NCBI GenBank assembly: GCA_040384765.1 | Contig: JAZKIQ010000004.1 | Location: 1 to 17,905 of the forward strand | Origin: Patescibacteria group bacterium | Lineage (GTDB): Bacteria > Patescibacteriota > Minisyncoccia > Phycocordibacterales > JBBUBG01 | Direction: 5' to 3' | DNA length: 17,905 bases | Shown here: positions 4,156-17,679 of the stretch, piece after piece | Position numbering within the stretch: position 1 is the first letter of the stretch | How the letters are laid out: every line of letters starts with the position of its first letter | The notes under the pieces: generated by a model | The model's input: only the letters and a program-made list of their open reading frames with translations | Told to the model about the DNA's origin: nothing | Databases searched by the model: none | Made by a program: the position numbers and the translations under genes

Positions 4156-5256
4156 CTAGCGGTTCATCGGCATCACCAAATAGGTCAGGCTGGTGTCTCG
4201 CACAGGCTTGATCACGAGGGGTTTACCTGGCCCATTGAGGGAGACTGCCACTTTCTCTTCCCCAATCGACTGCAGGCCATCGAGAACGTACTTAGCATTA
4301 AAGCTCATGGTGGCGAGCTCACCTTCAAACACCCCTTCGAGGAGTGTCGTATTTTCTCCGGAATCCTGGTTTTTCGACTCCACCTCACACACCCCTTCGG
4401 CTGGATCAATCTTAAGAGCTATCTGAGACAGTCTGTCTGAAAAAAGAGCAGAGAGCTTGAGCGCCTGAACAAGGTCGCGCTTCTCAAGCGTCCCTTTTGT
4501 TTTTGACTGGGTCGGCATGATCTGACGATAGTTTGGAAAATTCCCCACAACGAGGCGCGTCGTGAAATAGAGATTCTCCGTTTTGAGCGAGAGCTGGTTC
4601 TTGTTGATCAAAACTGTCACATCTCCCTGCTCATTCTCTATTGCCCGAAGCAGCTCTCCGGCGTTTTTCTGAGGAATCAAGAGAGCTGTCTGCATCGTGC
4701 TTTCGGCTGCCTGAACCCTTTTCTCTGCGAGGCGAAAGCCGTCGGTTGCCACAAACACAAGCTCACCGTTGTCTGCGTACAAGTAGATACTCGCGATCTC
4801 AGGCTTCACGTCAGAAAGTGAGGCAGCATACAGCACCGCGCGTATCCCCTCACGGAGCCCTTCTGCACTGATAACAACAGTCTCTTCCGCCTCTACCCGC
4901 GGTATAACAGGAAAATCTTCGGCTGGAACACTTTTAATAAGCGTTGATGTCCGCTTTGTTGCGAGCGCAAGATTTCCTCCCACCACCTCAAATTTGATCG
5001 TCTCATCCCCACCCACGGTCGAGAGAAAGTTTGAAAGCATAGCGCCTCCAAGAGCCACCAACCCTTCACCTTCAAGCTTCGCAGGCACCGCATACTCGAT
5101 ACCCACATCAAGGTTTGTCGCCTTCAGAAGGAGCTTCCCTTTGCCAGCTTCGATAAGGATGGCGGAGAGTACGGGCAGTGAAAGGTTTTTACCCGTCATC
5201 TTTTCGACGAGGGCCACCCCTCCTTTCAACCGATCTCTGAGACATTCTCCTTTCAT
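4156..5256 (-). CDS. dnaN: DNA polymerase III beta sliding clamp
   Basis: 366 aa with ATNLD, EDFP, VATDGFRLA, GNFPNYRQIMP, FNAKYVLD and a C-terminal LVMPM; lies downstream of dnaA. Confidence 0.97.
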   Translation of the reverse strand: MKGECLRDRLKGGVALVEKMTGKNLSLPVLSAILIEAGKGKLLLKATNLDVGIEYAVPAKLEGEGLVALGGAMLSNFLSTVGGDETIKFEVVGGNLALATKRTSTLIKSVPAEDFPVIPRVEAEETVVISAEGLREGIRAVLYAASLSDVKPEIASIYLYADNGELVFVATDGFRLAEKRVQAAESTMQTALLIPQKNAGELLRAIENEQGDVTVLINKNQLSLKTENLYFTTRLVVGNFPNYRQIMPTQSKTKGTLEKRDLVQALKLSALFSDRLSQIALKIDPAEGVCEVESKNQDSGENTTLLEGVFEGELATMSFNAKYVLDGLQSIGEEKVAVSLNGPGKPLVIKPVRDTSLTYLVMPMNR

Positions 5257-5428
5257 AAGATGTGTATGATTTTTTATATAAAACAGTTCACTACTCCTAT
5301 TAGTCCTGTGGATACCGTGGATAACTCAGAAATCTTTTGTAACCACAACGTCTTTTCCCTATTTTCCAACTGCTTCTTTTGTGGACAACTCATCTCTTTT
5401 TCCCCAGATGCCGATTATGTTATGCACT
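5257..5428. promoter_or_regulatory. oriC: oriC unwinding region (DnaA boxes, DnaA-trio-like tract, AT-rich DUE)
   Basis: One-mismatch DnaA boxes at 5307-5315 (TGTGGATAC), 5316-5324 (CGTGGATAA), 5380-5388 (TGTGGACAA), 5398-5406 (TTTTCCCCA) and 5420-5428 (TTATGCACT), plus a weaker box at 5339-5347. An AT-rich tract lies at about 5265-5284, in the dnaA-dnaN intergenic region. Confidence 0.85.
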
Positions 5429-6784
5429 CGCCAAGGTGTTATACAGGATGTTCTTAATCTGTTCTACCTCCTGATTCAACAGGTTATCCACCTTGATATC
5501 CTCTTTTATCTTCTCATATGCGTGAATAACGGTTGTGTGGTCGCGTCCTCCAAGCTTTTGGCCAATATACGGATACGACGTGTTGAAATCCTCGCGAAGG
5601 ATATACATGATTACTTGCCGCGGCTTCACCACCTCTTTGCGACGTGTTTTTTCATAGAGTACACGCTCTTCAATGTTGTAGAACTCCGCAACAATTCGAA
5701 TAACATCCTTGATCGAGATCTGGCGTTGCTGCTTGATGTTGTTTTTGATCAGTACCTTTGCTTCAGCAAGAGAAAGAGGTCTGTTTTTGAGCTGAGCTTG
5801 GCATACGATCGCATTTAAGGTGCCTTCGAGTTCTCGGATCGAGTCGGCGATCACTGAGGCGATATATTCAATAATGCTGTCATCGGGAGCAAACGCCGTC
5901 TGACGCGCCTTTGTTTTGAGAATCGCAAGACGTGACTCAAAGTCAGGCTTGGTTACGTCTGCTTGCATGCCTCCCTCAAAGCGCGATCGAAGACGATCCT
6001 CGAGGCCTACAATCTGTTTTGGTGGCTTGTCCGAGGAGAAGATCACCTGCTTTCCATTTTCATGAAAATGGTTGAACAGATGGAACAACTCTTCCTGGGT
6101 TTTGTCCTTTGCGGTAAGAAACTGGATATCATCAATAATAAGGAGGTCAAACTTCCGGTACTTCTCCTTAAAAAGATGCACTCTGTTTTTGATAACTGAG
6201 TCCACAAAGTCGGTCATCCACCGCTCGCTCGTTACATAGTAGGTTTTTTTGGTAGGGTCGCGTTTTCGCAGCTCGTTGCCAATGGCTTGGAGGAGGTGTG
6301 TCTTCCCTACTCCCGTAGGTCCATAGATAAAAAGCGGGTTGTAGTTCTTGCCGGGGTTTTTTACCACTGCTTGCCCTGCAGCGTATGCCAGTTCATTGAA
6401 GGGGCCGACGATAAAGTCATCGAAGGTGTATTTCGGGTTGAGATTATCCTCCTTGTTTACAAACATTTCAGCAATCGGCATCTGGGCTGCAAAGGTGCCA
6501 GAAGGTGCGGCTGACTCACTTGCCTTCTTTTTGTCATCTATGCGCTCGATTACAAATTCAACACCTCGTACATTCGATGCGTTGGTGCGAAGTATCTCGA
6601 GGATTGTTTTGTGGTGCTTTGCCGAGAGCCAGTCTCGCACAAATGCGTTGGGAACCCCTACGAAGATGATCTCGTCCTCCTCTTTTGCGATGGAGGTGTT
6701 CTTAAACCATGTGTTGAAGTTTGCCTTTGATACCGAAAGTTCAACCTCGGAAAGTGTTTTCTGCCATAGTTCTTTAAGATCCAT
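5420..6784 (-). CDS. dnaA: Chromosomal replication initiator DnaA
   Basis: LNPKYTFDDF, YNPLFIYGPTGVGKTHL (Walker A), LLIIDDIQF (Walker B), RLRSRF and GGRDHTTVIHA (domain IV). The likely true start is ATG 6784 (MDLKELWQ), giving 454 aa. Confidence 0.98.
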   Translation of the reverse strand: MDLKELWQKTLSEVELSVSKANFNTWFKNTSIAKEEDEIIFVGVPNAFVRDWLSAKHHKTILEILRTNASNVRGVEFVIERIDDKKKASESAAPSGTFAAQMPIAEMFVNKEDNLNPKYTFDDFIVGPFNELAYAAGQAVVKNPGKNYNPLFIYGPTGVGKTHLLQAIGNELRKRDPTKKTYYVTSERWMTDFVDSVIKNRVHLFKEKYRKFDLLIIDDIQFLTAKDKTQEELFHLFNHFHENGKQVIFSSDKPPKQIVGLEDRLRSRFEGGMQADVTKPDFESRLAILKTKARQTAFAPDDSIIEYIASVIADSIRELEGTLNAIVCQAQLKNRPLSLAEAKVLIKNNIKQQRQISIKDVIRIVAEFYNIEERVLYEKTRRKEVVKPRQVIMYILREDFNTSYPYIGQKLGGRDHTTVIHAYEKIKEDIKVDNLLNQEVEQIKNILYNTLASA

Positions 6785-6790
6785 GGGAGA

Positions 6791-6796
6791 AGTATA
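6791..6796 (-). promoter_or_regulatory. Putative -10 element of dnaA (TATACT)
   Basis: The minus strand reads TATACT-tctccc-ATG(6784). Confidence 0.6.
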
Positions 6797-6829
6797 AATC
6801 CCTCTGTTGAAAGCAAGAACTAGGCGGAG

Positions 6830-6861
6830 TTGTTCACATATTGTGGAGTACCTGTGGATAA
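6830..6861. promoter_or_regulatory. DnaA box cluster upstream of dnaA
   Basis: A perfect TGTGGATAA at 6853-6861, TTGTTCACA at 6830-6838 (1 mismatch) and TGTGGAGTA at 6842-6850 (2 mismatches). Confidence 0.8.
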
Positions 6862-6926
6862 CTCGCTCATCATTTGGTGGGAGTGATCCGTTGACATTTG
6901 TATGCAAATGAGAAGCCTCTCCTGGG

Positions 6927-6955
6927 TTGCGGGGAGGCCTCGATTCATATACACT
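6927..6955 (+). promoter_or_regulatory. Putative sigma70 promoter of rpmH-rnpA-yidC
   Basis: TTGCGG (6927-6932), a 17-nt spacer and TACACT (6950-6955), 7 nt before ATG 6963. Confidence 0.6.
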
Positions 6956-6962
6956 GGTCCCT

Positions 6963-7097
6963 ATGTCATTTACCTATAAGCCAAAGAAGCGAAAGCGCAA
7001 AACTACGCATGGATTTCTCGTGCGAAGCAAGAGCCCAGGAGGGCGCGCAGTGCTCAAGCGTCGCCGCCAAAAAGGCCGCAAGAAGCTTTCGGTATAG
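6963..7097 (+). CDS. rpmH: 50S ribosomal protein L34
   Basis: Not in the ORF track. Translated by hand: [44 protein letters not shown] (44 aa; HGF...RRxKGR). Divergent from dnaA and upstream of rnpA. Confidence 0.97.
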
Positions 7098-7114
7098 CGG
7101 CTCTTCGAATTCGT

Positions 7115-7447
7115 ATGAAGGCTTCCTCAAGGATCAGCCGCTCCGAATTTCCCGCTTTACTCGCTGGTCGCACTGTTCGCGGAGAGCATCTAGAGCTTAA
7201 ATACGCCCCATTTCCGGGGCGTATTTCGTATGCAATGGTCGTGTCTGCAAAAGTGGCTCCGAGTGCGGCAGATCGCAACCGGCTTCGGAGGCGGGGTCGT
7301 GCTATACTACAGAAACTCCAAAAAACAGTTGAACCTGGCTGGGGCATAGCACTGTTCTTCAAAAAAGGAGCACCCAAGCTGTCGTTTGCGGAGCTTGAAG
7401 TGGAGATTCGCTCCCTTCTTCTCAAAACCTCTTTTTTTCATTCGTAA
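7115..7447 (+). CDS. rnpA: Ribonuclease P protein component
   Basis: 110-aa basic protein with the RNR motif VVSAKVAPSAADRNRLRRR; follows rpmH. Confidence 0.92.
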   Translation: MKASSRISRSEFPALLAGRTVRGEHLELKYAPFPGRISYAMVVSAKVAPSAADRNRLRRRGRAILQKLQKTVEPGWGIALFFKKGAPKLSFAELEVEIRSLLLKTSFFHS

Positions 7448-7450
7448 TCA

Positions 7451-8167
7451 ATGCTTCAAGCACTTTTCTTTAACCCTTTCTATAATGCGCTCATCTTTCT
7501 TGCTGCTGTATTGCCAGGAAACGATGTTGGATTCGCCATTATTCTCCTGACCCTTGCGGTGAAAGGGATACTTGCTCCCCTCTCGCACAGCTCGCTTCTT
7601 GCACAGCGCAAAATGCGCGAGCTCGAACCGAAGCTCAAGGAGCTCAAGTCAAAGCATAAGGATCAAAACGAACAGGCACTAAAGATGATGGAGCTGTATC
7701 GTGAGCATGGGGTCAATCCGTTTTCGAGCTTGATGGTGATGCTCGTACAGATTCCCATCATCTTCGGTCTCTATTTTGTGTTTCAGGCGGGCATCGATCT
7801 TGCATCCCCCGCACTCTATGCGTTTACGCCACGGCCAGAATCGATCAACACCGTTTTCCTAGGTTTGGTAAACCTTGCTGAGCCAAGCTGGGTGCTCGCG
7901 GGCATCGCTGCCATTACGCAATTTTTCCAGACACAACTTGCGGTCCCTCCCGTACCAAAGGCAAAAGACGGCGAAGAGTCCACGTTTCAGGAGGAGTTTG
8001 CGCGTAGCATGAGTTTTCAGGCTCGTTTTATATTGCCGATTTTCATCTTCTTTATCTCTTTCAAGCTTCAGGCGGCCCTTCCCCTCTACTGGGCCACAAG
8101 CAACCTCTTTGGTATTGCTCACGAACTGTATATCAGACGCGAGGCGCAGAAAATTTCGCATAGCTAA
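7451..8167 (+). CDS. yidC: Membrane protein insertase YidC/Oxa1 (short form)
   Basis: GFAIILLTLAVK, MELYREHGVNP, LVQIPI and LPLYWATSNLF; canonical rpmH-rnpA-yidC synteny; no large periplasmic domain. Confidence 0.95.
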   Translation: MLQALFFNPFYNALIFLAAVLPGNDVGFAIILLTLAVKGILAPLSHSSLLAQRKMRELEPKLKELKSKHKDQNEQALKMMELYREHGVNPFSSLMVMLVQIPIIFGLYFVFQAGIDLASPALYAFTPRPESINTVFLGLVNLAEPSWVLAGIAAITQFFQTQLAVPPVPKAKDGEESTFQEEFARSMSFQARFILPIFIFFISFKLQAALPLYWATSNLFGIAHELYIRREAQKISHS

Positions 8168-8362: not shown

Positions 8363-9580
8363 CTATCTCACCTCTACCGACCAGAGTGCGCCATCAAGCT
8401 TGTTTATGAAATAGAGGTAGGAGCCTGTCGTGTCGATGGTGAGCTTTGTGATATCGAGAAGCTCACGAATACCTTCCCTCTCGGGAGCAAGCACGAGCTC
8501 GGGGTCGCCATCCTCTGAAAAGCGCCACAGCTCATCGTTTGTATGAAAAAGGCCTTTGTACCAAGCGTCGGGGAGCGCTGTTGTTGGGAGAGATGTTGGT
8601 ACAGCGCAAAAGAGTGCGTTGCTCTGGGTCCAGCGGCATTTTTCGGGAAAGGTGGTTATCGGATAGGGTCGCGAAGACTTACCCACGTCGAGCATAGCAG
8701 TTGAGAGTGAGTTTCCGGACGACTGGCTGTAGAGCAGCTCCTTTCCGCTTGGTGATAGTAGCCCCACGATGCCAGGGAGTTCGCCGAGAAGTTCTGTTTG
8801 TGCCCCCGTCTTCACATCGAGAGCGATAATCGCGCCCTCTACCCCAGACGATGCTTTTGTTCCAAGCAGGATCGTGCCCGGAGAGGTCCATGAGATGTTC
8901 CACTCGGTAAGCGGTGAAGAAAAAAGTGGGACACTTTTTTTAGAAACCATATCGAATATCTGACCTACTACGCCGCTCCCGCTTGGCAAGAGTACGAACG
9001 CTTTTTTGCCATCAGGAGAAAACGTAAAGTCGAGAGCTGCCCTTGGAAATGCGGTAGGAATAATCGTTATTTCTGTTGAGGTGGCAGCTGGGAGTGCATA
9101 TGCTGCAGTTCCCAGGAGCCCTGTTTCGGGGTCTTGTGCGCTTATCGCTACCAGTTTTCCGTCGCTTGACCATGATGCGCTCACGATCCCTCGAACGGTA
9201 GTGTTTGAAAGTTTTCGCACATCCCCTGTTTGGGGCGAGGCCTCAAAGATATGTCCGGTGGATCTCTCGATAAAGCGAACGGAGGGTTTGTCGCCGCTCT
9301 CCGCTACCGCGCTCGCTACGCCTGCCGTGAATAGCTTTCGCGCAGGGCTTGGCTCACCGTTTGAGAGAGACGTATCGCTCCCCGTGTTTCCGGTTCCAGC
9401 CGGAGCTCCCCTTGCCGGTACTCCGGAAACATCTTTGCCAAGGGAGACAGGAAATATTCCTGAGCCATCGTCTTGCGGTGCCTCATCGCCCGACCCACTT
9501 CGAAGAACAAAAAAGAGCGCGAGGATAGCAAGAATCGCTACGACAACTGTGCCAACTGCAATCTGTTGAGTGCGGGTCAT
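8363..9580 (-). CDS. Membrane-anchored beta-propeller protein (TolB/PD40-like repeats), paralog 2
   Basis: N-terminal TM helix, a G/S/P linker and repeated WSSDGK/FSPDGK/LSPSGK blades; EKCRW..LFCAVP..LPDAWYKG. Paralog of 10775-12001. Confidence 0.75.
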   Translation of the reverse strand: MTRTQQIAVGTVVVAILAILALFFVLRSGSGDEAPQDDGSGIFPVSLGKDVSGVPARGAPAGTGNTGSDTSLSNGEPSPARKLFTAGVASAVAESGDKPSVRFIERSTGHIFEASPQTGDVRKLSNTTVRGIVSASWSSDGKLVAISAQDPETGLLGTAAYALPAATSTEITIIPTAFPRAALDFTFSPDGKKAFVLLPSGSGVVGQIFDMVSKKSVPLFSSPLTEWNISWTSPGTILLGTKASSGVEGAIIALDVKTGAQTELLGELPGIVGLLSPSGKELLYSQSSGNSLSTAMLDVGKSSRPYPITTFPEKCRWTQSNALFCAVPTSLPTTALPDAWYKGLFHTNDELWRFSEDGDPELVLAPEREGIRELLDITKLTIDTTGSYLYFINKLDGALWSVEVR

Positions 9581-9583
9581 GAT

Positions 9584-10756
9584 CTAAGGATTCTTGAAAA
9601 TAACATGGAAATGGTCGTTGTCCGTGCCTATCCGTTCTCTTCGATATACATCTCCATTCGGTTGAATATATTCGATCGCTGGTCCACTTCCGATGGTTAC
9701 GTCTCGTACCGCCCCTCCCGGCAGAAGGGCAGCCTTGGTGATAAAGTCGACTGTTTTTTTATCGTGGAGGCTTATATCGACAATGTTGCGGCCAACCCTG
9801 TGGGTCTCATGACCCGGTTCGTTGCCACCGGTCACCTGTACGGTGCAGCCCCCACAGGTTGCCTTGAGCGTAATGAGTTTATCGAGGGCAGTTTTGCCCA
9901 TGCCACCCACATCGGTTTTTGGAGCGGTGCTGTTTACGGTGATATCGCCGTCTTTAAGGAGCGCGCGTACTGTCTTGTCGTCTCCAGCAGAGGCGCTTTT
10001 ATGTATTGTTGGGTCATATGCTGTTGCTTCGCCGGCTGTCCCGCTTCGGACTATTTTGCTCCCCCCTCCCGTCACTGCATCCTTTGCCTGTCGAATGGCG
10101 TCCTTAGCTCTCGCTTGTCCCGTCGCTCCTCCCCGCACCTCGATCTTGGGGATCGTGAACTTAAACGCCACGATATTGGGGTTGATGGTACGCAAGATGA
10201 GAAAGCTGCCGAGCGCGATTGCGGTACCGATCCCCGCATTGCGAATACGAGCACGTGCCTCATTCACCCCCTCGATCCGTCCCCCCACCCCACCCCAGAT
10301 GTACTGGAGTCCTGCCCACACAAGCGAAAAGAAAAGTACCACGCCACCAAAGGATATGAACAAAGTGAACAGTGTGCGCAGATAGTCACTCACCCCCTCT
10401 TCACTAATCCCTGCTTTGGTGAGATCAAGCCCGGGAACATTAATCGGTGCAAGAAAGCAGTATGTACCCTGCCCTGCGCCATCTGTGACGCTCGTCTTGC
10501 AGTTGTTCTTGATGACTGACCCTCCGGCAGTTGAGGGAGCAGCAGAGGCAGCTGCAGGAGATTCTCTGGTGGGGAGAGAGTACGAGGTGCCGGAGGTGGG
10601 GGCGTTTGGGGAGGGGGTGCTACCGCTGTCTTGGTCGAGGTCTGTGGGGCCGATGGCGGAGGTGGGTTGGAAGTTTGCAAAGGTAGGAGGTGCAACACAA
10701 AAGAGGCCGAGGAGGGCTGCGGCGACTACAAGCTTTGTGCGGAGGGCGTGATGCAT
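9584..10756 (-). CDS. Signal peptide + T4SS pilin-like (TrbC/VirB2-type) domain + C-terminal M15/LAS-like zinc peptidase domain
   Basis: A signal peptide and P/S/T linker, then two TM helices (YLRTLF...WAGLQYIWGG; RIRNAGIGTAIALGSFLILRTINP). The C-terminus has VTGGNEPGHETHRVGRNIVD and a terminal DHFHV (H..D..HxH zinc ligands). Confidence 0.65.
   Translation of the reverse strand: MHHALRTKLVVAAALLGLFCVAPPTFANFQPTSAIGPTDLDQDSGSTPSPNAPTSGTSYSLPTRESPAAASAAPSTAGGSVIKNNCKTSVTDGAGQGTYCFLAPINVPGLDLTKAGISEEGVSDYLRTLFTLFISFGGVVLFFSLVWAGLQYIWGGVGGRIEGVNEARARIRNAGIGTAIALGSFLILRTINPNIVAFKFTIPKIEVRGGATGQARAKDAIRQAKDAVTGGGSKIVRSGTAGEATAYDPTIHKSASAGDDKTVRALLKDGDITVNSTAPKTDVGGMGKTALDKLITLKATCGGCTVQVTGGNEPGHETHRVGRNIVDISLHDKKTVDFITKAALLPGGAVRDVTIGSGPAIEYIQPNGDVYRRERIGTDNDHFHVIFKNP
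10060..10619. repeat. 560-bp exact direct repeat, copy 1 (pilin core)
   Basis: Compared line by line with 12458-13017 (offset 2398); no mismatch seen. The sequences diverge at 10059/12457 and 10620/13018. Confidence 0.95.
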
Positions 10757-10774
10757 AAAAGGAGATCCCTTCCT

Positions 10775-12001
10775 CTACTCTTCTTGATCTATCTGTACTC
10801 GCCACAGAGTTTGATCTGCTTTGTTTATAAAATAGACAAAGCGGTCGTTCTCGTCTGGGGTTAGGTTGATTATATCGATAAATCCCCGTTTTCCATCGGT
10901 CCCGTCAAACAGCTTTTCAATAAATCCTGTGCGCGAAAAGCCCCAGAGCGCGTCAGCGGTGTGAAAAAGACCTTTGTACCAAGCGTCTGGAAGAGCTGTT
11001 GCTGGCCATACGAGAGGTGCTGCGCAGTAGAGTGTCGAGGTTTTGCCCCAGGTGCATTTTTCAAGAAGAGTGACCGGGTCAAACTCATATGAAGATCCAA
11101 GAGAGAGTGTCACCATTTTGGTGCGTAGGCCTGCGCTACTGTTTTCGGTGACAAGCAGCCGTTTCCCATCGGGAGAAAGAAGCGCTTGGATGCCCGCCGT
11201 ACCTTCGGCAAGCAAACGCTCTGTTCCTGTTTTTGGATCAATACTGAGGGCTACTCCCTCTATCCCCGAAGAGGCCTTTGTAGTAAGGAGGATCTGGCGG
11301 GGATCGGTCCAGGAGATTTGCCATTCTGAAAGTGGAGAGCTCCAGATCTCGCGTTCTTTTCGTGTTGAGAGAGTAACAACGAGCCCCTTCACGCCAGCTC
11401 CCGAGCCACGCAGGAAAAAGAGCTCTTTCCCGTCGGGAGAGAAGGCGAACTCAACCACTCCTCTCGGAAAAGCGATCGGCGTGAGCGATATTTCGGTCGA
11501 GCTTGCCGAAGGGAGCGCGTAGGCACTGTGGGTGTAGGCTCCGATGTTTGAATCTATCTGAAACACGACGGTCTTGCCGTCCGGGCTCCAGATGGCTTTG
11601 GCTATCTGTACGATCGTCGTATTTGAAATTTTTATCGCAGCATCGGCATTCGCGTGTCGGTCGAAAATATGCCCTGTATCTTTTTCTGCGTAGCGCACAA
11701 ACGGGTCGTCTCCCCCAAAAGCTACCATCCCTGCCACGCGACCGGAGGTCAGCTTTGCTCCATCGCTCGGGAGCGCGGCTCCCTCACCCACGTTTCCGTC
11801 GAGAGACAGCGCGGCACTGCTCCCCCTCCCTCCAGTTTGAGATACTGATGTGCCGTCCGAGGTGGGAAAGAGGCCTGAGGCATCGGACGCTCCGGCTCCC
11901 CCTTCGTTTGAGGAGTTGTTTCGGAAAATAAAAAAAGCGAACAGCCCCCCAAGAAGAAGGATAGCTATTCCTGCGCCGATGATTTTTTGCGTGCGTGTCA
12001 T
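10775..12001 (-). CDS. Membrane-anchored beta-propeller protein (TolB/PD40-like repeats), paralog 1
   Basis: The likely start is ATG 12001 (MTRTQKII, matching the paralog's MTRTQQIA, 4 nt after the upstream stop). TM helix; WSPDGK/FSPDGK/LSPDGK blades; EKCTW..LYCAAP..LPDAWYKG. Confidence 0.75.
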   Translation of the reverse strand: MTRTQKIIGAGIAILLLGGLFAFFIFRNNSSNEGGAGASDASGLFPTSDGTSVSQTGGRGSSAALSLDGNVGEGAALPSDGAKLTSGRVAGMVAFGGDDPFVRYAEKDTGHIFDRHANADAAIKISNTTIVQIAKAIWSPDGKTVVFQIDSNIGAYTHSAYALPSASSTEISLTPIAFPRGVVEFAFSPDGKELFFLRGSGAGVKGLVVTLSTRKEREIWSSPLSEWQISWTDPRQILLTTKASSGIEGVALSIDPKTGTERLLAEGTAGIQALLSPDGKRLLVTENSSAGLRTKMVTLSLGSSYEFDPVTLLEKCTWGKTSTLYCAAPLVWPATALPDAWYKGLFHTADALWGFSRTGFIEKLFDGTDGKRGFIDIINLTPDENDRFVYFINKADQTLWRVQIDQEE

Positions 12002-12005
12002 TTTA

Positions 12006-13145
12006 TTAGAGCGGTCTGCGAAGTGTCTCCCAGTACGCCGTACCCCCGATCCATTTTCCTTTCGCATCTTTGCCGGCAATGACCCCCTCTTTTTTGAGCT
12101 GTCTTGCCATAATCTCTACGCCTACTTCAATGTTTTTGTACGGATCTTTCAGATCCTCATTGGAGTAGTTGCGCGCGCGTGCTTCCTTGTCGACGTCGGT
12201 CAGCTGCAAGAGGCCGTAGTTGTTGAGATAGACATCGTTGGGGTTGAAATCTGACTCTCTCTTCGCGATTTTCCCGAGAAGCTCGACCCACCCTTCGTCT
12301 GTCACTTTTCCATCTGGGAAAAAGGCTGCCGCATCTGTGATCGGAATGTTTGAAAGCCCTGTGCGCTGCACCTGTGCGAGTGCATAGGCGTTCCAGCTGT
12401 CGTTGCGGAAGCCAGTTTTACTGGTGAGATTTGTGTTTTCGAGGCGTGGAGCTGTCGTCCCCCCTCCCGTCACTGCATCCTTTGCCTGTCGAATGGCGTC
12501 CTTAGCTCTCGCTTGTCCCGTCGCTCCTCCCCGCACCTCGATCTTGGGGATCGTGAACTTAAACGCCACGATATTGGGGTTGATGGTACGCAAGATGAGA
12601 AAGCTGCCGAGCGCGATTGCGGTACCGATCCCCGCATTGCGAATACGAGCACGTGCCTCATTCACCCCCTCGATCCGTCCCCCCACCCCACCCCAGATGT
12701 ACTGGAGTCCTGCCCACACAAGCGAAAAGAAAAGTACCACGCCACCAAAGGATATGAACAAAGTGAACAGTGTGCGCAGATAGTCACTCACCCCCTCTTC
12801 ACTAATCCCTGCTTTGGTGAGATCAAGCCCGGGAACATTAATCGGTGCAAGAAAGCAGTATGTACCCTGCCCTGCGCCATCTGTGACGCTCGTCTTGCAG
12901 TTGTTCTTGATGACTGACCCTCCGGCAGTTGAGGGAGCAGCAGAGGCAGCTGCAGGAGATTCTCTGGTGGGGAGAGAGTACGAGGTGCCGGAGGTGGGGG
13001 CGTTTGGGGAGGGGGTGAATTCGAGCTGAACGTCGCTGACCCCACTACTTGGAGTTGGAGCAATTGCCGCAGCTAGTGCAGAGTTACTCCCTAGAAAAAG
13101 AGTTAAAAGAAGGACTGCGAGTTGTGCAAAAAAGAGGCGTCTCAC
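12006..13145 (-). CDS. Signal peptide + T4SS pilin-like domain + C-terminal SLT-family lytic transglycosylase
   Basis: The GTG start overlaps the upstream TGA. Same pilin core as 9584-10756. The C-terminus has IAKRESDFNP (catalytic ES), YGLLQL and LKDPYKNIEVG. Confidence 0.75.
   Translation of the reverse strand: MRRLFFAQLAVLLLTLFLGSNSALAAAIAPTPSSGVSDVQLEFTPSPNAPTSGTSYSLPTRESPAAASAAPSTAGGSVIKNNCKTSVTDGAGQGTYCFLAPINVPGLDLTKAGISEEGVSDYLRTLFTLFISFGGVVLFFSLVWAGLQYIWGGVGGRIEGVNEARARIRNAGIGTAIALGSFLILRTINPNIVAFKFTIPKIEVRGGATGQARAKDAIRQAKDAVTGGGTTAPRLENTNLTSKTGFRNDSWNAYALAQVQRTGLSNIPITDAAAFFPDGKVTDEGWVELLGKIAKRESDFNPNDVYLNNYGLLQLTDVDKEARARNYSNEDLKDPYKNIEVGVEIMARQLKKEGVIAGKDAKGKWIGGTAYWETLRRPL
12458..13017. 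repeat. 560-bp exact direct repeat, copy 2 (pilin core)
   Basis: Identical to 10060-10619; the alternative-frame ORFs in the track are also duplicated. Confidence 0.95.
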
Positions 13146-14128
13146 TTTTCAAAGGTGATAAAGAAGCTGTTACGGGCGGACTGCAAGATCTTTCGGATGT
13201 TCTCAGCTGCAAAACCGATCTGGCTTGCTCCCGATCCCCCTTCTCCTGAACGGAGTGTTAGAACAAAGGGATCAGTTCCCGAGGGCACGATCTCACCGTT
13301 GATGCTCCAGGCTGATTTTAGTGTTGCGAGAGAGATATCTTCGAGCGAGACGAAATAGGGCGCTGCTCGCACCGTTGCCTCGCCTTCGAGAAGTGCGGCA
13401 CCTGCGTCGAGCGTGCTTTCAAGGATTGTGCCTGAAAGCGGACTCTCTTCGTAGAAATGTATCTCCGGCTCGACTTCGGGAAGCTCGACTGTTTTTTCTG
13501 TCGTTATGGTGCCGTCTGTGGTCGACACGAGTACGGAGACAACCGACCCCCCCTGGATCAGATCTTTTTTATAAAAAAGAACATTTTTACCAAAGCCCGA
13601 TGCTTGATTTTTTATCTTGTTGTCTACTTTCCAGGTGTATACCAGCTTTTCGGATGGGACCTCTTTCCCTCCACTAAAGAGGTGTGGCATAGCCACTATC
13701 TTCATCGTGGCTTCCGGTGAAGGAAGTGCCTTGCCTTTGTACCCAAGCGGTACAAATGTTTGTGCTTCCCACAGAAGGCTTACTGAGCCCGGGTTGATCG
13801 AAAGCGTTTTGGTGACGGCGCTGTTGCCCGAGCGTACGGTAATGCCGATCCGTGTTACAACCCCACGTTTACCTGTGCTAAAGAAAAGCTCTTTCTCCCC
13901 CATACCAGAAAGTACCTGTCGGCCATTTATCGTCCAGGTGATCGTCGAGCTATCAAGATCCACAGAAAAGTTTTGAAGTACGATGCGAGCAGGAACCTCG
14001 GGCCCTGGGTACTGCGGGAATACAAGAGCCGTAAGCTCGCTTCCTCCGAAGCCACCAATCTGCGCGCGGGTCGCAAGCGGCACAAGGAGGAAAATGAAGG
14101 CTAGTAATAAAAAAGTTTTGTATTTCAT
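13142..14128 (-). CDS. Secreted beta-rich protein with about three Ig/PKD-like domains
   Basis: Signal peptide (..ATRA|Q) and three repeats of a W-x-[IV]-[ND]-[GN] motif (ITWTING, YTWKVDN, SAWSING). ATGA/GTGA overlaps with both neighbours. Confidence 0.6.
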   Translation of the reverse strand: MKYKTFLLLAFIFLLVPLATRAQIGGFGGSELTALVFPQYPGPEVPARIVLQNFSVDLDSSTITWTINGRQVLSGMGEKELFFSTGKRGVVTRIGITVRSGNSAVTKTLSINPGSVSLLWEAQTFVPLGYKGKALPSPEATMKIVAMPHLFSGGKEVPSEKLVYTWKVDNKIKNQASGFGKNVLFYKKDLIQGGSVVSVLVSTTDGTITTEKTVELPEVEPEIHFYEESPLSGTILESTLDAGAALLEGEATVRAAPYFVSLEDISLATLKSAWSINGEIVPSGTDPFVLTLRSGEGGSGASQIGFAAENIRKILQSARNSFFITFEK

Positions 14129-14556
14129 GCTGCTTTGCGAGGGGTAAAGTCTGGTCGTCGTGACGCTCCGAGTCGCGCCCGGGTTACCACAGCAAGGTCA
14201 ATTTTTGTTTTCTCAGCTTGTTTCTTTTCATGCTGCTTTTTATCTTCTTTCCATGAGTTGCGTATCACTATGAAAGCATCGAGCGAAAAAAAGCTTCCCT
14301 GGTCTGTTCCCGGGAGAAGCTCCAGGATGATGGCGATGAACGTGATCACCAGATTTTTGCCGCCAAAGAGGTTTACTCCATAGATTTTAAGCCAAAACCA
14401 GAGCATAAAATAGCCCGAAAGGGTGATGAGCCAGTTGATCACCACTCCGATGAGCGCCCATTCGAGGATCACTTGTATCAGGTCGACGCATGCGGTGCCG
14501 ATGAGGGTGAGGAGTGCAATTGGTGTGCTTATGCGGTATTCGATCTGGTGGTTCAT
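14125..14556 (-). CDS. Small polytopic membrane protein of the T4SS-like operon
   Basis: Three to four hydrophobic segments and a basic C-tail; ATGA overlaps with the VirB4 gene and with the downstream gene. Confidence 0.65.
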   Translation of the reverse strand: MNHQIEYRISTPIALLTLIGTACVDLIQVILEWALIGVVINWLITLSGYFMLWFWLKIYGVNLFGGKNLVITFIAIILELLPGTDQGSFFSLDAFIVIRNSWKEDKKQHEKKQAEKTKIDLAVVTRARLGASRRPDFTPRKAA

Positions 14557-16385
14557 CGGGAGGTTGGCTTAACTTCTGGGTGTGTTTGTCCGTACTCCTC
14601 TTTTGCTTCGCGGATAGCAAGGAGTTGTGAAGGGTCGGAGGTGATGATCTGGTCTTCGGTGTATGAGGCGATCACTTTGATTGCCGCATGTTTGAGCCCT
14701 GCAAAAAAGATCCCCTCCCCCACGGCAGATTCAAGCAGAAGAAACTTCTCCTCTTCGGTGAGGTTGAACGTTTTTTGGATTGCATCGATCGATGCAGGAG
14801 ACTGCTTAAGCAACAGCTGCATCGAAGAGTTGGTGACAATTGGCAGACCATACGGAGATTTCATGAAGTCCTCGACGTCTTGAGTGATCGTCGCAAGACC
14901 AAGGAAATATTTACGTCCACGTTTTGCAAGCGAAAAGAGGAACGAAGCGGTGTCCTCGGACTTCATCATCCACCATGCCTCGTCGATCACGAGGAGTCGC
15001 TTGCGCAGATTGCGGCGCACAGCGCCCCAGATATAGTTCATTACGATATGCATCGCGACAGGCTTGAGTTCGTCTTCCATGTCGCGCACAGAAAAGACGA
15101 TGAATTTTTTGTTGATATCGATATTCGTGGGGCGGTTGATGAACCCTGCCCACGATCCTTGGGTATATTTGAGCATTCGAGTCGCAAGCGAGCCACCGCC
15201 CTCCATGCCTGCAAGTACGAGCTCGAGGTCTGAGAGGAGGGGCGGGTCAAGATGGGCTCCTGCTGCGATGGACTCTACGGTGATATCTTTGAGAGCGTAT
15301 GTTTCGGTGATAGCAGAGTCTACGATCGAATCCTCTTCGGGCGTAAGACCGCCGAGCATGATTCGAAAGAGGCCCACCAGAGTGATGATGTGCGAGCGGA
15401 GGACATCTGCAGGAGACTCATCTTCTCGTACCGGTGGAAGATCAAATGGGTTGATATGGTGCTCTGAGGTAAGCGAGATATTAAAATAGCGCCCCCCTAC
15501 TGCGTCGGCCATATATTCGTACTCTCGTTCTGGGTCGATCACAATCACTTCAGTATCAAACATCAGGGTGCGAAGGATCTCGAGCTTTGTTGCGTACGAC
15601 TTGCCAGAGCCTGCTTTTGCAAAGGTGACGGAGTTGTAGTTTTCAAGCGAGAACCGGTCGAACAGGATAAGGCTCGAGTTGTGGCGGTTGATGCCGTACA
15701 AAATACCTTTGTCGCTCGTGAGGTCGAACGAAATAAAAGGAAAGAGTGAAGAGAGTGGCGAAGAGTTGAGCTTTGAGTGGACCTCGATCTTATCTTCGCC
15801 CACAGGAAGCACGCTTTTCCACGCCTCTTCTTGCTGGAAAAGTGCTGGCTTTACGTAGATAAGTCGTGACTCGAGGATTGACTTGATCTCTGCCTCGGTT
15901 TTCTCGAGCTCTGCCTCGTTTTCTCCGTAGATCGTGATGTAAAGGCCTACATCAAAAAGCCGCTCTTGTGCCTGCTGGAGCTGATTGCGCAGCTGCTCCA
16001 CATCTTGGTATGCGGTGTCGAGCACCGGGTCGCGCACAAATCCTTTTTCGGAGCGTATAGAAATCTGGCTCTGGATCTCGGCCGCTTTTTTCTGGAGCTT
16101 TTTGAGCACTGACGCTGTGTCGACTGGGTGAACGAAGATGGCTACATCAAAAATCTTGTCGAGGTTGATGATCGGTGCAAACCAGTTTTCAGAAAGAAAG
16201 CGCGGGTATGAGATGACATAAAAAGTACGGGATACCTTTTCGCCAAGGTGGAGGTTTTTGGGTGTTATGTTGAGTGCCGACGGAGCGATGACGTCTTTGA
16301 GCTCAAGGACGCCTGCCGAATAGATATCCTCGGGGAGGATAGGTGCGATTTCCGGTTCATTTTTCTTGTTGCCGAAGATTGACAT
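14553..16385 (-). CDS. virB4: VirB4/TraC-like type IV secretion ATPase
   Basis: Walker A (AKAGSGKS), VIDPEREY, HINPFD, Walker B (LLVIDEAW), KRGRKY and ITQDVEDF. Confidence 0.88.
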   Translation of the reverse strand: MSIFGNKKNEPEIAPILPEDIYSAGVLELKDVIAPSALNITPKNLHLGEKVSRTFYVISYPRFLSENWFAPIINLDKIFDVAIFVHPVDTASVLKKLQKKAAEIQSQISIRSEKGFVRDPVLDTAYQDVEQLRNQLQQAQERLFDVGLYITIYGENEAELEKTEAEIKSILESRLIYVKPALFQQEEAWKSVLPVGEDKIEVHSKLNSSPLSSLFPFISFDLTSDKGILYGINRHNSSLILFDRFSLENYNSVTFAKAGSGKSYATKLEILRTLMFDTEVIVIDPEREYEYMADAVGGRYFNISLTSEHHINPFDLPPVREDESPADVLRSHIITLVGLFRIMLGGLTPEEDSIVDSAITETYALKDITVESIAAGAHLDPPLLSDLELVLAGMEGGGSLATRMLKYTQGSWAGFINRPTNIDINKKFIVFSVRDMEDELKPVAMHIVMNYIWGAVRRNLRKRLLVIDEAWWMMKSEDTASFLFSLAKRGRKYFLGLATITQDVEDFMKSPYGLPIVTNSSMQLLLKQSPASIDAIQKTFNLTEEEKFLLLESAVGEGIFFAGLKHAAIKVIASYTEDQIITSDPSQLLAIREAKEEYGQTHPEVKPTSR

Positions 16386-16386
16386 G

Positions 16387-17061
16387 CTATTTGGCTTGCG
16401 CGGTGACCGAGGTCATCCCCTCAACTACGGGCCGCTCGAGATCGCCGGGGTTGAATATTTTGTAAAACAGCTCCACGAGTTCTTCGGTGCCAAGGGGCAA
16501 CGCGCGCACTCCTGCGCGGACGAGGCCTTGGGCCACCACAGACGCGCGCTGCTCGAGCTGCGCGCGGTTTTCTTCGAACGCCTCTCTCTTTGCGCCCGTC
16601 TCGGCAGAGTTTTGTTTGCTCCCAAAGAGGGTGCCAAGAAAGCCAACGGCCTTTCCCTGCCCTACGGCAAACGGAGGCGTGTACGGAATAATGACAAAGA
16701 ATGTTTTTGTCATTATCGATACAGAGTCGGTGAAGCTTTTGATGAACTGCACATATTCACGAGTCTGAATCTTGATCAGGTCGTTTACCTGCACCTTCAT
16801 GCGTTCTTCAAGGAGTGAGATATAGGGGCGAATATCGAGACGGCGCGACTGGATATAGATCTGTACGGAAAAATCGAGAGAGTTGAGAAAGTTTTGATAC
16901 TGAGAGATGATCGCCGTTTGTTCGTCGGCCGATTTGAGCGCAAAGTTGAGCGATGAGCAGATAAGCGCCATCGCGAGTGTGCCATCTTTGAGGACCACTA
17001 CACCGTCGTGGATCTCATCAATAGGTAGGAACTCTTGTGCTGCTTTTGACGCTTTGGCCAT
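16387..17061 (-). CDS. VirB4-associated protein (resembles the TraC/VirB4 N-terminal region)
   Basis: LNFALKSADEQ..YQNFLNSLDFSVQI..; 1 nt from the VirB4 start; lies between prgI and virB4. Confidence 0.6.
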   Translation of the reverse strand: MAKASKAAQEFLPIDEIHDGVVVLKDGTLAMALICSSLNFALKSADEQTAIISQYQNFLNSLDFSVQIYIQSRRLDIRPYISLLEERMKVQVNDLIKIQTREYVQFIKSFTDSVSIMTKTFFVIIPYTPPFAVGQGKAVGFLGTLFGSKQNSAETGAKREAFEENRAQLEQRASVVAQGLVRAGVRALPLGTEELVELFYKIFNPGDLERPVVEGMTSVTAQAK

Positions 17062-17109: not shown

Positions 17110-17517
17110 TTATTTCTGTACCTTTTCTTGTACGTCGAGTGACCAGGCAAGGTCTTTGAGCTTGCTGCGAGATACTCTTTCGATAGAAAGGGGCTGTTGT
17201 TTAGGGAGAATGAGGTCCTCCTCCTTTTTTACCGGCTTGTCTTCCCTGTGCCATGTGTAGAGCTTTGGGCCGAGCTGGTAGCGTACCCATGCGGCGAGAG
17301 CGTAGATAAAAGGCCGTTCGTTTACTTTGTAGAAAGCGAGTGCGAGCGAAAGGCCGGCGAATCCGAGAATGGCGGGAACGGCTAGGAAGGTGGGAAAGAT
17401 CTGGTAGAGGATAAAGCTTCCTGCTCCCCCGCCCGCTACATAGAGAAACTGCTTGAACGTGAGCCGTCCAAACAGCTTGTCTTCAACATCGATGAATTGA
17501 GGAACTTGAAATTGCAT
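17110..17517 (-). CDS. prgI: PrgI family protein (VirB3-like T4SS membrane component)
   Basis: MQFQVPQFIDVEDKLFGRLTFKQF, two TM helices, then KVNERPF..PKLYTW. ATG 17517 is preferred and is preceded by TATACT + 6 nt. Confidence 0.8.
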   Translation of the reverse strand: MQFQVPQFIDVEDKLFGRLTFKQFLYVAGGGAGSFILYQIFPTFLAVPAILGFAGLSLALAFYKVNERPFIYALAAWVRYQLGPKLYTWHREDKPVKKEEDLILPKQQPLSIERVSRSKLKDLAWSLDVQEKVQK

Positions 17518-17523
17518 ATGTAC

Positions 17524-17529
17524 AGTATA
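17524..17529 (-). promoter_or_regulatory. Putative -10 element of prgI (TATACT)
   Basis: The minus strand reads TATACT-gtacat-ATG(17517). Confidence 0.55.
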
Positions 17530-17533
17530 GCTC

Positions 17534-17679
17534 ACCTTCTTAAAACTCATTTCGGGACTCGGGCGTTTCTCGGGAAAAGCACGATACTTTTCTGCTGAAA
17601 AGTTCTCTACTCAGCGCCTTCGCGCTTCCGTAAGGCTTTTCCCGAGAAGCGCCCTCGAGCCTCATGGATTTAAGAAGGT
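17534..17679. repeat. Nested inverted-repeat element (MITE/REP-like or structured RNA)
   Basis: An outer 11-bp IR (ACCTTCTTAAA at 17534-17544 / 17669-17679), a 20-bp IR with 1 mismatch (17561-17580 / 17635-17654) and inner hairpins at 17586-17603 and 17613-17626. Confidence 0.75.

Follow-up and report, generated by a model that had tools for sequence, protein, structure and literature searches.

A homogenised VirB2-like pilin module joined to two putative peptidoglycan hydrolase domains in a type IV secretion operon of Patescibacteria

We report two genes of a Patescibacteria group bacterium that carry one and the same pilin-like core, identical to the last nucleotide, joined in each case to a different enzyme-like domain. 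Both lie in an operon of a type IV secretion system (T4SS), within a window of 17,905 nucleotides (nt), the whole stretch of DNA analysed here, which forms the beginning of a contig of 135 kb in a genome of 823 kb that is 99.8% complete. In our preferred reading, to which we assign a probability of about 0.6, the products P0002 (379 amino acids (aa); 12006..13145, minus strand) and P0001 (390 aa; 9584..10756, minus strand) are the peptidoglycan hydrolases of the monoderm-type T4SS of Paceibacteria (Parcubacteria), in the role played elsewhere by VirB1, PrgK, TraG (pIP501) and CwlT.

Each protein would consist of five parts: a Sec signal peptide, a linker rich in Pro, Ser and Thr, a VirB2-like two-helix module, a short helical spacer and an enzyme domain lying outside the membrane. 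P0002 would cut the glycan strand, as an SLT or GH23-like enzyme, and P0001 the peptide stem or cross-link, as a LAS-type zinc peptidase, and between them they would attack both kinds of bond, as single two-domain hydrolases do in the T4SSs of Gram-positive bacteria. The common pilin module would take both enzymes to the site where T4SS pilins dock or assemble, the wall to be opened being chiefly the cell's own, and recurrent gene conversion would hold the module identical between the paralogues. Pilin-fused enzymes of this kind may show how Patescibacteria pass a secretion machine through the wall.

An exact core shared by two genes

An earlier note on this DNA, made from the sequence alone, had described two genes with an identical core of about 186 aa that pass abruptly into unrelated C-termini, and this description is borne out to the letter. 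Positions 10060-10619 (residues 47-232 of P0001) and 12458-13017 (residues 44-229 of P0002), both on the minus strand, are identical at 560 of 560 nt and encode 186 aa. In BLASTP the two proteins share 192 identities over 211 positions in their N-terminal part only, with nothing significant elsewhere; their signal peptides and C-termini are unrelated. The tract starts past the differing signal peptides and some 20 further residues and stops where the C-terminal domains begin, at their first codon. At the same offset, its flanks are 13-57% identical per 30-nt window (mostly 20-40%, about the random level), and both borders are sharp, background identity being reached within one such window. The tract takes in the linker of Pro, Ser and Thr, then a pair of Cys residues, then the two hydrophobic helices up to LILRTINP, and last the spacer with its terminal TGGG.

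Because synonymous sites within the tract are identical too, it would have been made by recombination, in the form of gene conversion, and not by selection at the protein level alone. Each fusion gene is followed by a gene for a beta-propeller, P0003 or P0004, and since these two proteins are only 45% identical (from residue 27 of P0003 onward), the duplication of the two-gene unit is old and the homogenisation of the pilin tract, which came long after it, is recent. The best-conserved piece of the propeller duplication is 71 nt long and 80% identical (8517-8587 versus 10935-11005).

An exact repeat of 560 nt is hard for short reads and the genome is metagenome-assembled; in other genomes contigs do end inside the core (G296), and an assembler might have collapsed or copied a repeat so that one of the two fusions is not real. 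We give this explanation almost no credence. In the independent contig graph of run X1 (Logan contigs) the repeat forms a 560-nt contig of its own at a depth of 9.55, against 5.8-8.05 for its neighbours, and four unique contigs overlap it by 30 nt each, so that all four junctions are present. One of the Logan contigs (10590-12487) leaves one core copy and enters the other, with no variant letters reported, and the gene order of the window is therefore the only linear path. Run X1 is possibly the source sample treated with another assembler, and its graph is a check on the assembler, not on the sample; next to none of the sampled window words are present in runs X2 and X3. The same pattern is also found in nine other genomes of the sample of paralogue pairs described below, and the combinations of pilin with SLT and of pilin with a LAS-like domain recur in many unrelated assemblies.

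The relatives of the core tie it to the T4SS pilins. A set of 35 sequences, consisting of 32 open reading frames (ORFs) from 29 loci of our genome searches together with P0001, P0002 and P0006, was compared with PF18895 (T4SS_pilin), and 34 of the 35 match at E<=0.01, the best at 2.7e-12; two of the set additionally match TrbC/VirB2. Several relatives score above the curated cut-off of 26.6 bits (39.9 bits for L025 and 34.6 bits for L015), the closest relative, P0006, whose core is 62% identical, reaches 25.1 bits, and in a second sample, anchored on virB4, 62 of 75 pilin ORFs match at E<=0.001. Through these relatives, the shared module can be assigned firmly, at the level of sequence, to the VirB2-like T4SS_pilin family of Patescibacteria.

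An AlphaFold 2 (AF2) model of the core, built from 53 sequences, shows one long helix spanning core residues 42-79 and another spanning 82-112, with a turn of two residues between them. Its predicted local distance difference test score (pLDDT) is about 90 within the hairpin, and confidence is low outside it; the hairpin corresponds to about 10184-10396 in P0001 and about 12582-12794 in P0002. With its many Arg residues, the interhelical loop should face the cytoplasm, for which reason both ends of the module probably lie outside the membrane, and signal-like N-terminal sequences are visible in both translations.

Residues N192 and P193, just past the second helix, are nearly invariant in the 35 relatives. 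This could mark a cleavage site: both genes would then encode precursors, cut after helix 2 near the INP motif into a soluble enzyme and the same mature pilin, and with identical cores the pool of pilins would be uniform. Processing at the C-terminus is established for pilins of the VirB2/TrbC type and counts for this possibility. Short stand-alone pilins from other loci (L016, L027 and L035), however, keep the INP..LV residues without any cargo, which makes the motif a part of the pilin itself, and the operon yielded no candidate protease. We regard cleavage as highly doubtful.

The two C-terminal domains

The C-terminal domain of P0002 (12009..12457, minus strand) is recognised by a family model. 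Residues 284-352 match PF01464 (SLT) with an E-value of 8.7e-9 and 35.4 bits against a cut-off of 21.3, as the earlier note had anticipated for the gene at 12006-13145, and the matched stretch, 12090-12296, contains the ES and GLLQL motifs. Every motif named in that note is in place, in P0002 as RES at residues 296-298 followed by GLLQL and DPYKN, and in P0001 as H316/H319...D327 and H382-F-H384. The closest solved sequence relative of the P0002 domain is DslA (Bd0314) of Bdellovibrio bacteriovorus (PDB 6ta9, 1.7e-8), in an alignment that covers DslA residues 155-233, downstream of the ES motif of DslA and including its YW region. Both proteins possess an ES motif, for which a catalytic role has been described in DslA; DslA differs in that it is soluble, has a second catalytic Glu and acts as a lysozyme on prey peptidoglycan that is deacetylated (PMC7511926). 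By its sequence, the P0002 domain is SLT/lysozyme-like at family level, a level at which the alignment does not tell a lysozyme from a lytic transglycosylase. The C-terminal end of P0002 (12009-12100) aligns with the YW stretch of DslA, a motif linked to the preference for deacetylated peptidoglycan (PMC7511926), and the pilin-SLT relatives L019 and L034 keep the YW residues.

The C-terminal domain of P0001 (9587..10059, minus strand; folded part residues 247-390, that is 9587-10018) has no sequence match in Pfam, NCBIfam or the PDB, and a profile of 75 relatives of the domain finds no match among PDB sequences either. A phmmer search of the PDB had offered a WD40 identity for residues 243-294, which we rejected as spurious, the matches being inflated by repeats. 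An exhaustive search of 1.84 billion representative sequences returned 139 relatives of the domain at E<=0.001 (six of them at E<=1e-10, including the query's own protein), most of which are 270-330 aa long with the domain at the C-terminal end. An alignment of 74 relatives was assembled from 62 of these 139 and 12 ORFs from the loci, and T4SS_pilin is present in 50 of the 74.

The case for a LAS-like fold comes from structure and conservation. The AF2 model of the domain has a pLDDT of 90.4 and a predicted template modelling score (pTM) of 0.83, and when it was compared with 48,161 chains by VIA-align, ranks 1 to 9 were all taken by LAS or Hedgehog structures, with 84-113 residues aligned. 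The top match was to ShhN (Z 6.3, root-mean-square deviation 3.5, 111 residues aligned, 20% identity), with a second ShhN chain at Z 6.0, followed by Hedgehog (Z 5.5), BaLdcB, which is VanY-like (Z 5.4), MepA (Z 5.2), VldE (Z 4.7), VanX (Z 4.3), the L-Ala-D-Glu peptidase of T5 (Z 4.1) and VanXYc (Z 4.0); VanXYg, DacB, VanYB, 1lbu, Ply500 and LysB4 stand in lower rows. Structural leads in the Atlas are clusters of DD-carboxypeptidase-like, M15_3 and M15_2 type. The active-site pattern of LAS enzymes is His...Asp followed by a C-terminal His-x-His/Asp, and among the 75 relatives H319 and D327 are conserved in all 75, E313 and H382 in 74, H316 in 72 and E374 in 71, with position 384 being His in 66 and Asp in nine.

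Since the whole top of the structural list is one superfamily and the His, Asp, His and Glu residues are conserved, the P0001 domain is, on the strength of a model, best treated as LAS-like at superfamily level only: a predicted zinc peptidase that belongs to no named M15 family and thus a new family of the LAS superfamily without a current model. It also has an extra N-terminal helical part that contains Cys. The LAS/Hedgehog/DD-peptidase fold (VanX, VanY and LdcB of MEROPS M15, MepA and the Zn DD-peptidase) provides its best structural matches, from which it differs in matching no M15 profile and in being mostly fused to a pilin, at least in the 74 relatives sampled. Many such enzyme domains, the LAS-like one among them, are invisible to current family models.

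Recurrence and homogenisation across the order

A word-index protein search with the core found a single outside relative, P0006, and the family becomes visible only in whole-genome searches. In a six-frame search, the core was matched in 263 of the 301 genomes of the order, mostly in ORFs of 250-600 aa. The earlier note's picture of one chassis with varied C-termini holds well beyond the window: when the C-terminal domains of core homologues were catalogued, 12 of 32 ORFs were found by eye to be P0001-like, a second type is rich in His and Cys, and other relatives end in Peptidase_M15_3, VanY, SLT, CHAP, dockerin-like repeats or nameless domains. In one genome (G203) a gene for pilin plus Peptidase_M15_3 (8.6e-16) adjoins one for pilin plus an SLT-like domain, and the two have an exact common core of 250 nt.

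A second sample of 80 loci was taken by way of VirB4 and its selection is therefore independent of the pilin. A pilin ORF lies downstream of virB4 on the same strand in 68 of the 80 loci, and all 75 pilin ORFs are on the virB4 strand. At least 100 aa follow the pilin domain in 49 of these 75 and fewer than 40 aa in 15; the P0001-like domain occurs in seven of the 75, always fused to the pilin. Pfam puts a name to few of the cargo domains, namely SLT_3 in two ORFs and SLT, 3D (3.1e-6), NlpC/P60 and He_PIG in one each. By eye, C-termini of 3D or MltA-like appearance were also noted in P0006 and in L010:354-1403, and these were set aside, as Pfam did not confirm them. The SLT_3 model is PF18896, the accession directly after that of T4SS_pilin, PF18895; our guess is that both were built from the same fused proteins, which would make the architecture implicit in Pfam. 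At one virB4 locus of another genome, two pilin-domain frames overlap (L059:6725-7252 and L059:7054-7797), possibly as a frameshifted or mis-assembled fusion gene.

Homogenisation of the core recurs as well. Among the 150 matches listed of the six-frame core search, 17 genomes have two rows; G178 was left out because its second match lies in the C-domain alone, and 16 pairs remain, that of the window among them. Their within-genome pilin identities are 1.00, 0.61, 1.00, 0.97, 0.96, 0.58, 0.70, 1.00, 0.86, 0.87, 0.75, 0.98, 0.98, 0.85, 0.83 and 0.98, and their C-termini reach 0.21-0.38 in forced alignments. Exact DNA runs of 138-560 nt lie inside the pilin module in 10 of the 16 pairs. Among the virB4-anchored loci, seven have two pilin ORFs. 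One of these pairs was excluded, a domain stretch being shorter than 60 aa, and the other six have within-locus pilin identities of 0.83, 0.91, 0.56, 0.91, 0.48 and 0.97; for 298 random pairs between loci the median is 0.37 and the highest value 0.54. Exact DNA that is limited to the pilin module of paralogues points, in these sequences, to gene conversion.

The genome of the window also has two tandem short stand-alone pilins on contig C9 (L051:3579-4010 and L051:4016-4375), directly after a gene for a solute-binding protein and far from the T4SS operon, the first of which matches TrbC (1.7e-7) and T4SS_pilin (2e-6), both above cut-off. Compared with the fused cores or with one another they reach only 23-27% identity, and homogenisation would therefore belong to the cargo-bearing set and not to all pilins. 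A homogenised module with a freely exchanged C-terminal domain yields a testable rule on which part must stay compatible.

Exact repeats of this kind have a practical side in that they break assemblies. The start or end of a contig falls within the pilin core at L006 and L039 (G296, contigs C15 and C9), L016 and L027, which makes it likely that short-read assemblies are regularly interrupted by the within-genome repeat and that the fusions are under-counted.

The identity of the cores could be a neutral by-product of recombination, the hairpin being a plain membrane anchor that tethers housekeeping wall hydrolases. It speaks for such an anchor that the long exact runs include synonymous sites, and were thus made by recombination and not by selection on the protein, and that divergence has brought six of the 16 pairs down to 58-85% identity. 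Several regularities weigh against a plain anchor: the conserved gene order, with all 75 pilin ORFs, in 68 loci, downstream of virB4 on its strand; homogenised cores, exact runs among them, on opposite strands at a distance of 9 kb (G074, G241) or on different contigs (G187, G296); and conversion tracts that end at the borders of the module. We consider it decidedly unlikely.

The earlier note had put forward a different function, in which P0001 and P0002 are minor pilins or surface subunits that display muralytic enzymes on the T4SS appendage and open the wall of a host or the cell's own. As a reading of pilus-displayed weapons, this would mean that the fusions co-polymerise with other pilins and that the filament opens the wall of the host on which the epibiont lives. 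Several results agree with this proposal. Cores that are uniform within genomes and far apart between them are expected of subunits that pack together, the C-terminus follows the second helix and should be outside the membrane, and the cargo is very diverse and includes adhesin-like dockerin and immunoglobulin (Ig)-like domains; the solved protein nearest to the SLT domain is a predator lysozyme that acts on the prey wall (PMC7511926), and T4SS pilins of Patescibacteria are highly expressed, among the highest-expressed genes of unknown function, in enrichment cultures (PMC10936435). Against it, the parts of the literature open to us describe no pilus for this lineage, a domain of about 160 aa may hinder the packing of subunits, and a host-attached life of this organism is presupposed. 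Moreover, in Gram-positive bacteria the T4SS requires hydrolases of this sort to pass the producer's own wall, so that no host is needed to account for the genes, and tandem repeats homogenise by recombination without selection. On balance we find display on a pilus unlikely. Taken furthest, the idea would make the pilus itself the effector: a programmable T4SS filament of one uniform pilin module with interchangeable cargo (glycan cutters, several peptide cutters and binding domains) that bores through a partner's wall, an idea which we hold to be doubtful.

The reading of P0001 and P0002 as the wall hydrolases of this T4SS has its own difficulties, and the following results weigh against it. 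The cores of the window score only 19.1 bits (P0001) and 19.2 bits (P0002) with PF18895, at an E-value of about 1.3e-3 over profile positions 4-62 of 71, and both are below the curated cut-off; the pilin relationship that the earlier note proposed is thus upheld by the relatives but not by the window's own copies. The hairpin of the core model is also an unspecific fold: VIA-align returns hundreds of unrelated helical hairpins, and the conjugative pilin of Aeropyrum pernix (8dfu_B; rank 10, Z 7.8) is tied with these. The Foldseek check suggested in the earlier note came up empty for both models, with no PDB match at E<=0.001 for the core or for the P0001 C-domain, whose best row, at 0.55, was unrelated. 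In BFVD the C-domain likewise had no Foldseek match at E<=0.001, the best row (3.4e-3) being a multi-domain phage protein named GH19, with Hedgehog-like and Peptidase M15A rows at E 0.13-0.45. Every LAS Z-score is below 8, a range where the tool warns of shared arrangement only, and none of the 75 family members matches a Pfam M15 model (M15_2, M15_3, M15_4 or VanY) at E<=0.1. What survives of the M15/LAS-like assignment made in that note is the fold and the conserved His/Asp/His residues; membership of M15 does not, and the structural scores are modest. When a profile of the C-domain family was run on 12 pilin ORFs with different C-termini (M15_3, VanY, two Cys/His types, SLT, CHAP and 3D-like), nothing significant was found, the best E-value being 0.06. 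The 16-pair sample is biased to similar pairs, both members having been found by their likeness to P0001, and the six pairs at 58-85% identity fall well short of exact cores. Finally, the C-domains of many relatives are not hydrolases but dockerin-like, Ig-like, coiled-coil-like or unnamed, and with non-hydrolase cargo so common the chassis would serve more than wall cutting.

Two of the non-hydrolase fusions join the pilin to long dockerin or EF-hand-like repeats (L037:11384-12967 in G074 and L038:11176-12291 in G241; Dockerin_1 4e-6), each with a near-identical core in a peptidase-bearing paralogue 9 kb off on the other strand. Cargo of this variety suggests that very small cells keep a large stock of extracellular domains, most of them unannotated, at their contact machinery.

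Known systems and the surrounding operon

The T4SSs of Patescibacteria have been described as MPF-FATA-like, located near dnaA and equipped with VirB2-like pilins, with VirB1 mostly undetected; according to the same 2025 survey, most genomes with VirB2-like pilins are without a VirB1-type hydrolase and pilus biogenesis may not need one (PMC12102498). A hydrolase attached to the pilin module would explain why VirB1 is seldom detected (PMC12102498), and for Paceibacteria the fusions offer a simple answer to the missing VirB1: the hydrolase would sit on the pilin module itself. Beyond P0001 and P0002, scans with family models found no further hydrolase family in the ten ORFs of the operon and four more upstream. 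The T4SS and its pilins are essential in the Saccharibacterium Southlakia epibionticum, the only species tested (PMC10633639), and the function of the T4SS in Patescibacteria is stated to be unknown (PMC10633639, PMC11665869). The accessible text on Patescibacteria T4SS pilins describes no pilin-hydrolase fusion, and the supplements of PMC12102498 and PMC10633639 may list some.

The VirB2-like pilins of Patescibacteria have in common with the module described here the family (by way of the relatives), the two-helix hairpin and a position near virB4 and dnaA. The published arrays consist of 2-11 short, divergent genes with an average identity of 25% and a maximum of 54% (PMC12102498), whereas in the window the pilin module carries an enzyme of 150-160 aa and is 100% identical between the paralogues.

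Among the hydrolases of Gram-positive T4SSs we compare PrgK (pCF10), TraG (pIP501) and CwlT (ICEBs1), the last of which we take to be a two-domain enzyme of this kind. Like P0001 and P0002, they are encoded in operons of the VirB4/PrgI type, tethered to the membrane and directed at both glycan and peptide bonds (PMC12102498). They differ in joining the glycosidase and the peptidase on one polypeptide, where here there are two separate proteins, P0002 and P0001; in having a CHAP or NlpC/P60 peptidase in place of a LAS-like one; and in using a simple transmembrane helix as a tether in place of a VirB2-like pilin module that is identical between both proteins. P0001 and P0002 have the VirB1-class trait of a tethered wall hydrolase in a T4SS operon and by architecture are not members of that class.

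The layout also resembles that of polymorphic toxins such as contact-dependent inhibition (CDI) and Rhs proteins, as the earlier note remarked, with a conserved N-terminal delivery module, swappable C-termini and recombination at the junction. The likeness stops at the layout: no small, immunity-like cognate gene follows P0001 or P0002, the next gene in each case being a conserved PD40 propeller, the cargo consists of wall enzymes and binding domains, and the conserved part is a T4SS pilin. A pilin scaffold with a grafted C-terminal module is known from the modular type IV pilins of Streptococcus sanguinis, where the cargo is adhesive; that is an unrelated pilus system with a class III signal peptide, and the cargo here is enzymatic.

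The operon runs on the minus strand from 17550 down to 8363, with gaps or overlaps of 3-18 nt between its genes, in the order PrgI, TrsD-like protein, VirB4, a 143-aa protein, a 328-aa protein, pilin-SLT, propeller, pilin-LAS and propeller. The VirB4 context noted earlier is confirmed by matches to VirB4 and PrgI. At the head of the part of the operon in the window stands a PrgI or VirB3-like membrane protein (17110..17550; PF12666 PrgI, 2e-8, 35.1 bits against a cut-off of 27), followed by a TrsD-like protein that resembles the N-terminal part of VirB4 (16387..17061; NCBIfam NF041427 TrsD at 2.2e-5, and the N-terminal parts of NF045975 and NF045971). The VirB4-like T4SS ATPase (14553..16385) is of the monoderm CD1110 or MPF-FATA type (NF045971 at 9.2e-109, 364.8 bits against a cut-off of 325; Pfam TraG P-loop at 5.3e-25), and its relatives, 73-79% identical, come from Parcubacteria, Paceibacterota, Taylorbacteria, Campbellbacteria, Kaiserbacteria and similar assemblies, which marks the organism as one of the Patescibacteria of Paceibacteria type. 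The VirB4 function is split over adjacent ORFs, the 224-aa TrsD-like protein and the 610-aa ATPase, which by sequence looks like the monoderm arrangement of TrsD plus TrsE and not like a broken gene.

Next come a 143-aa membrane protein (14125..14556), with hydrophobic stretches in its translation, and P0145, a 328-aa secreted protein (13142..14128), both without a Pfam or NCBIfam match; P0145 is conserved directly upstream of the pilin fusions. The propeller that follows P0002, P0003 (10775..12001), is membrane-anchored and of the PD40 type (PF07676, 5.8e-7), and its likely start is an ATG at 12001, 5 nt after the stop of P0002; its paralogue P0004 (8363..9580; weak PD40 match) starts 3 nt after the stop of P0001. 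In tblastn searches, in which some of the loci overlap, P0145-like relatives were found beside the pilin ORF in 31 of 48 loci and a PD40 propeller, next to pilin ORFs with many C-terminal types, likewise in 31 of 48. The order of P0145-like protein, pilin fusion and PD40 (TolB-like) propeller recurs, and the flanking proteins are probably uncharacterised parts of the T4SS.

Outside the operon, one side of the window holds tyrS, a class A penicillin-binding protein, dnaN, dnaA, rnpA and yidC, the last four of which (4156-8167) abut the T4SS operon. Upstream of PrgI there are four ORFs without family matches and then ksgA (L050:6607-7443), just past the far end of the operon, and a UvrD-type helicase. 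A T4SS beside dnaA, dnaN, rnpA and ksgA is the published placement for this class of Patescibacteria (PMC12102498).

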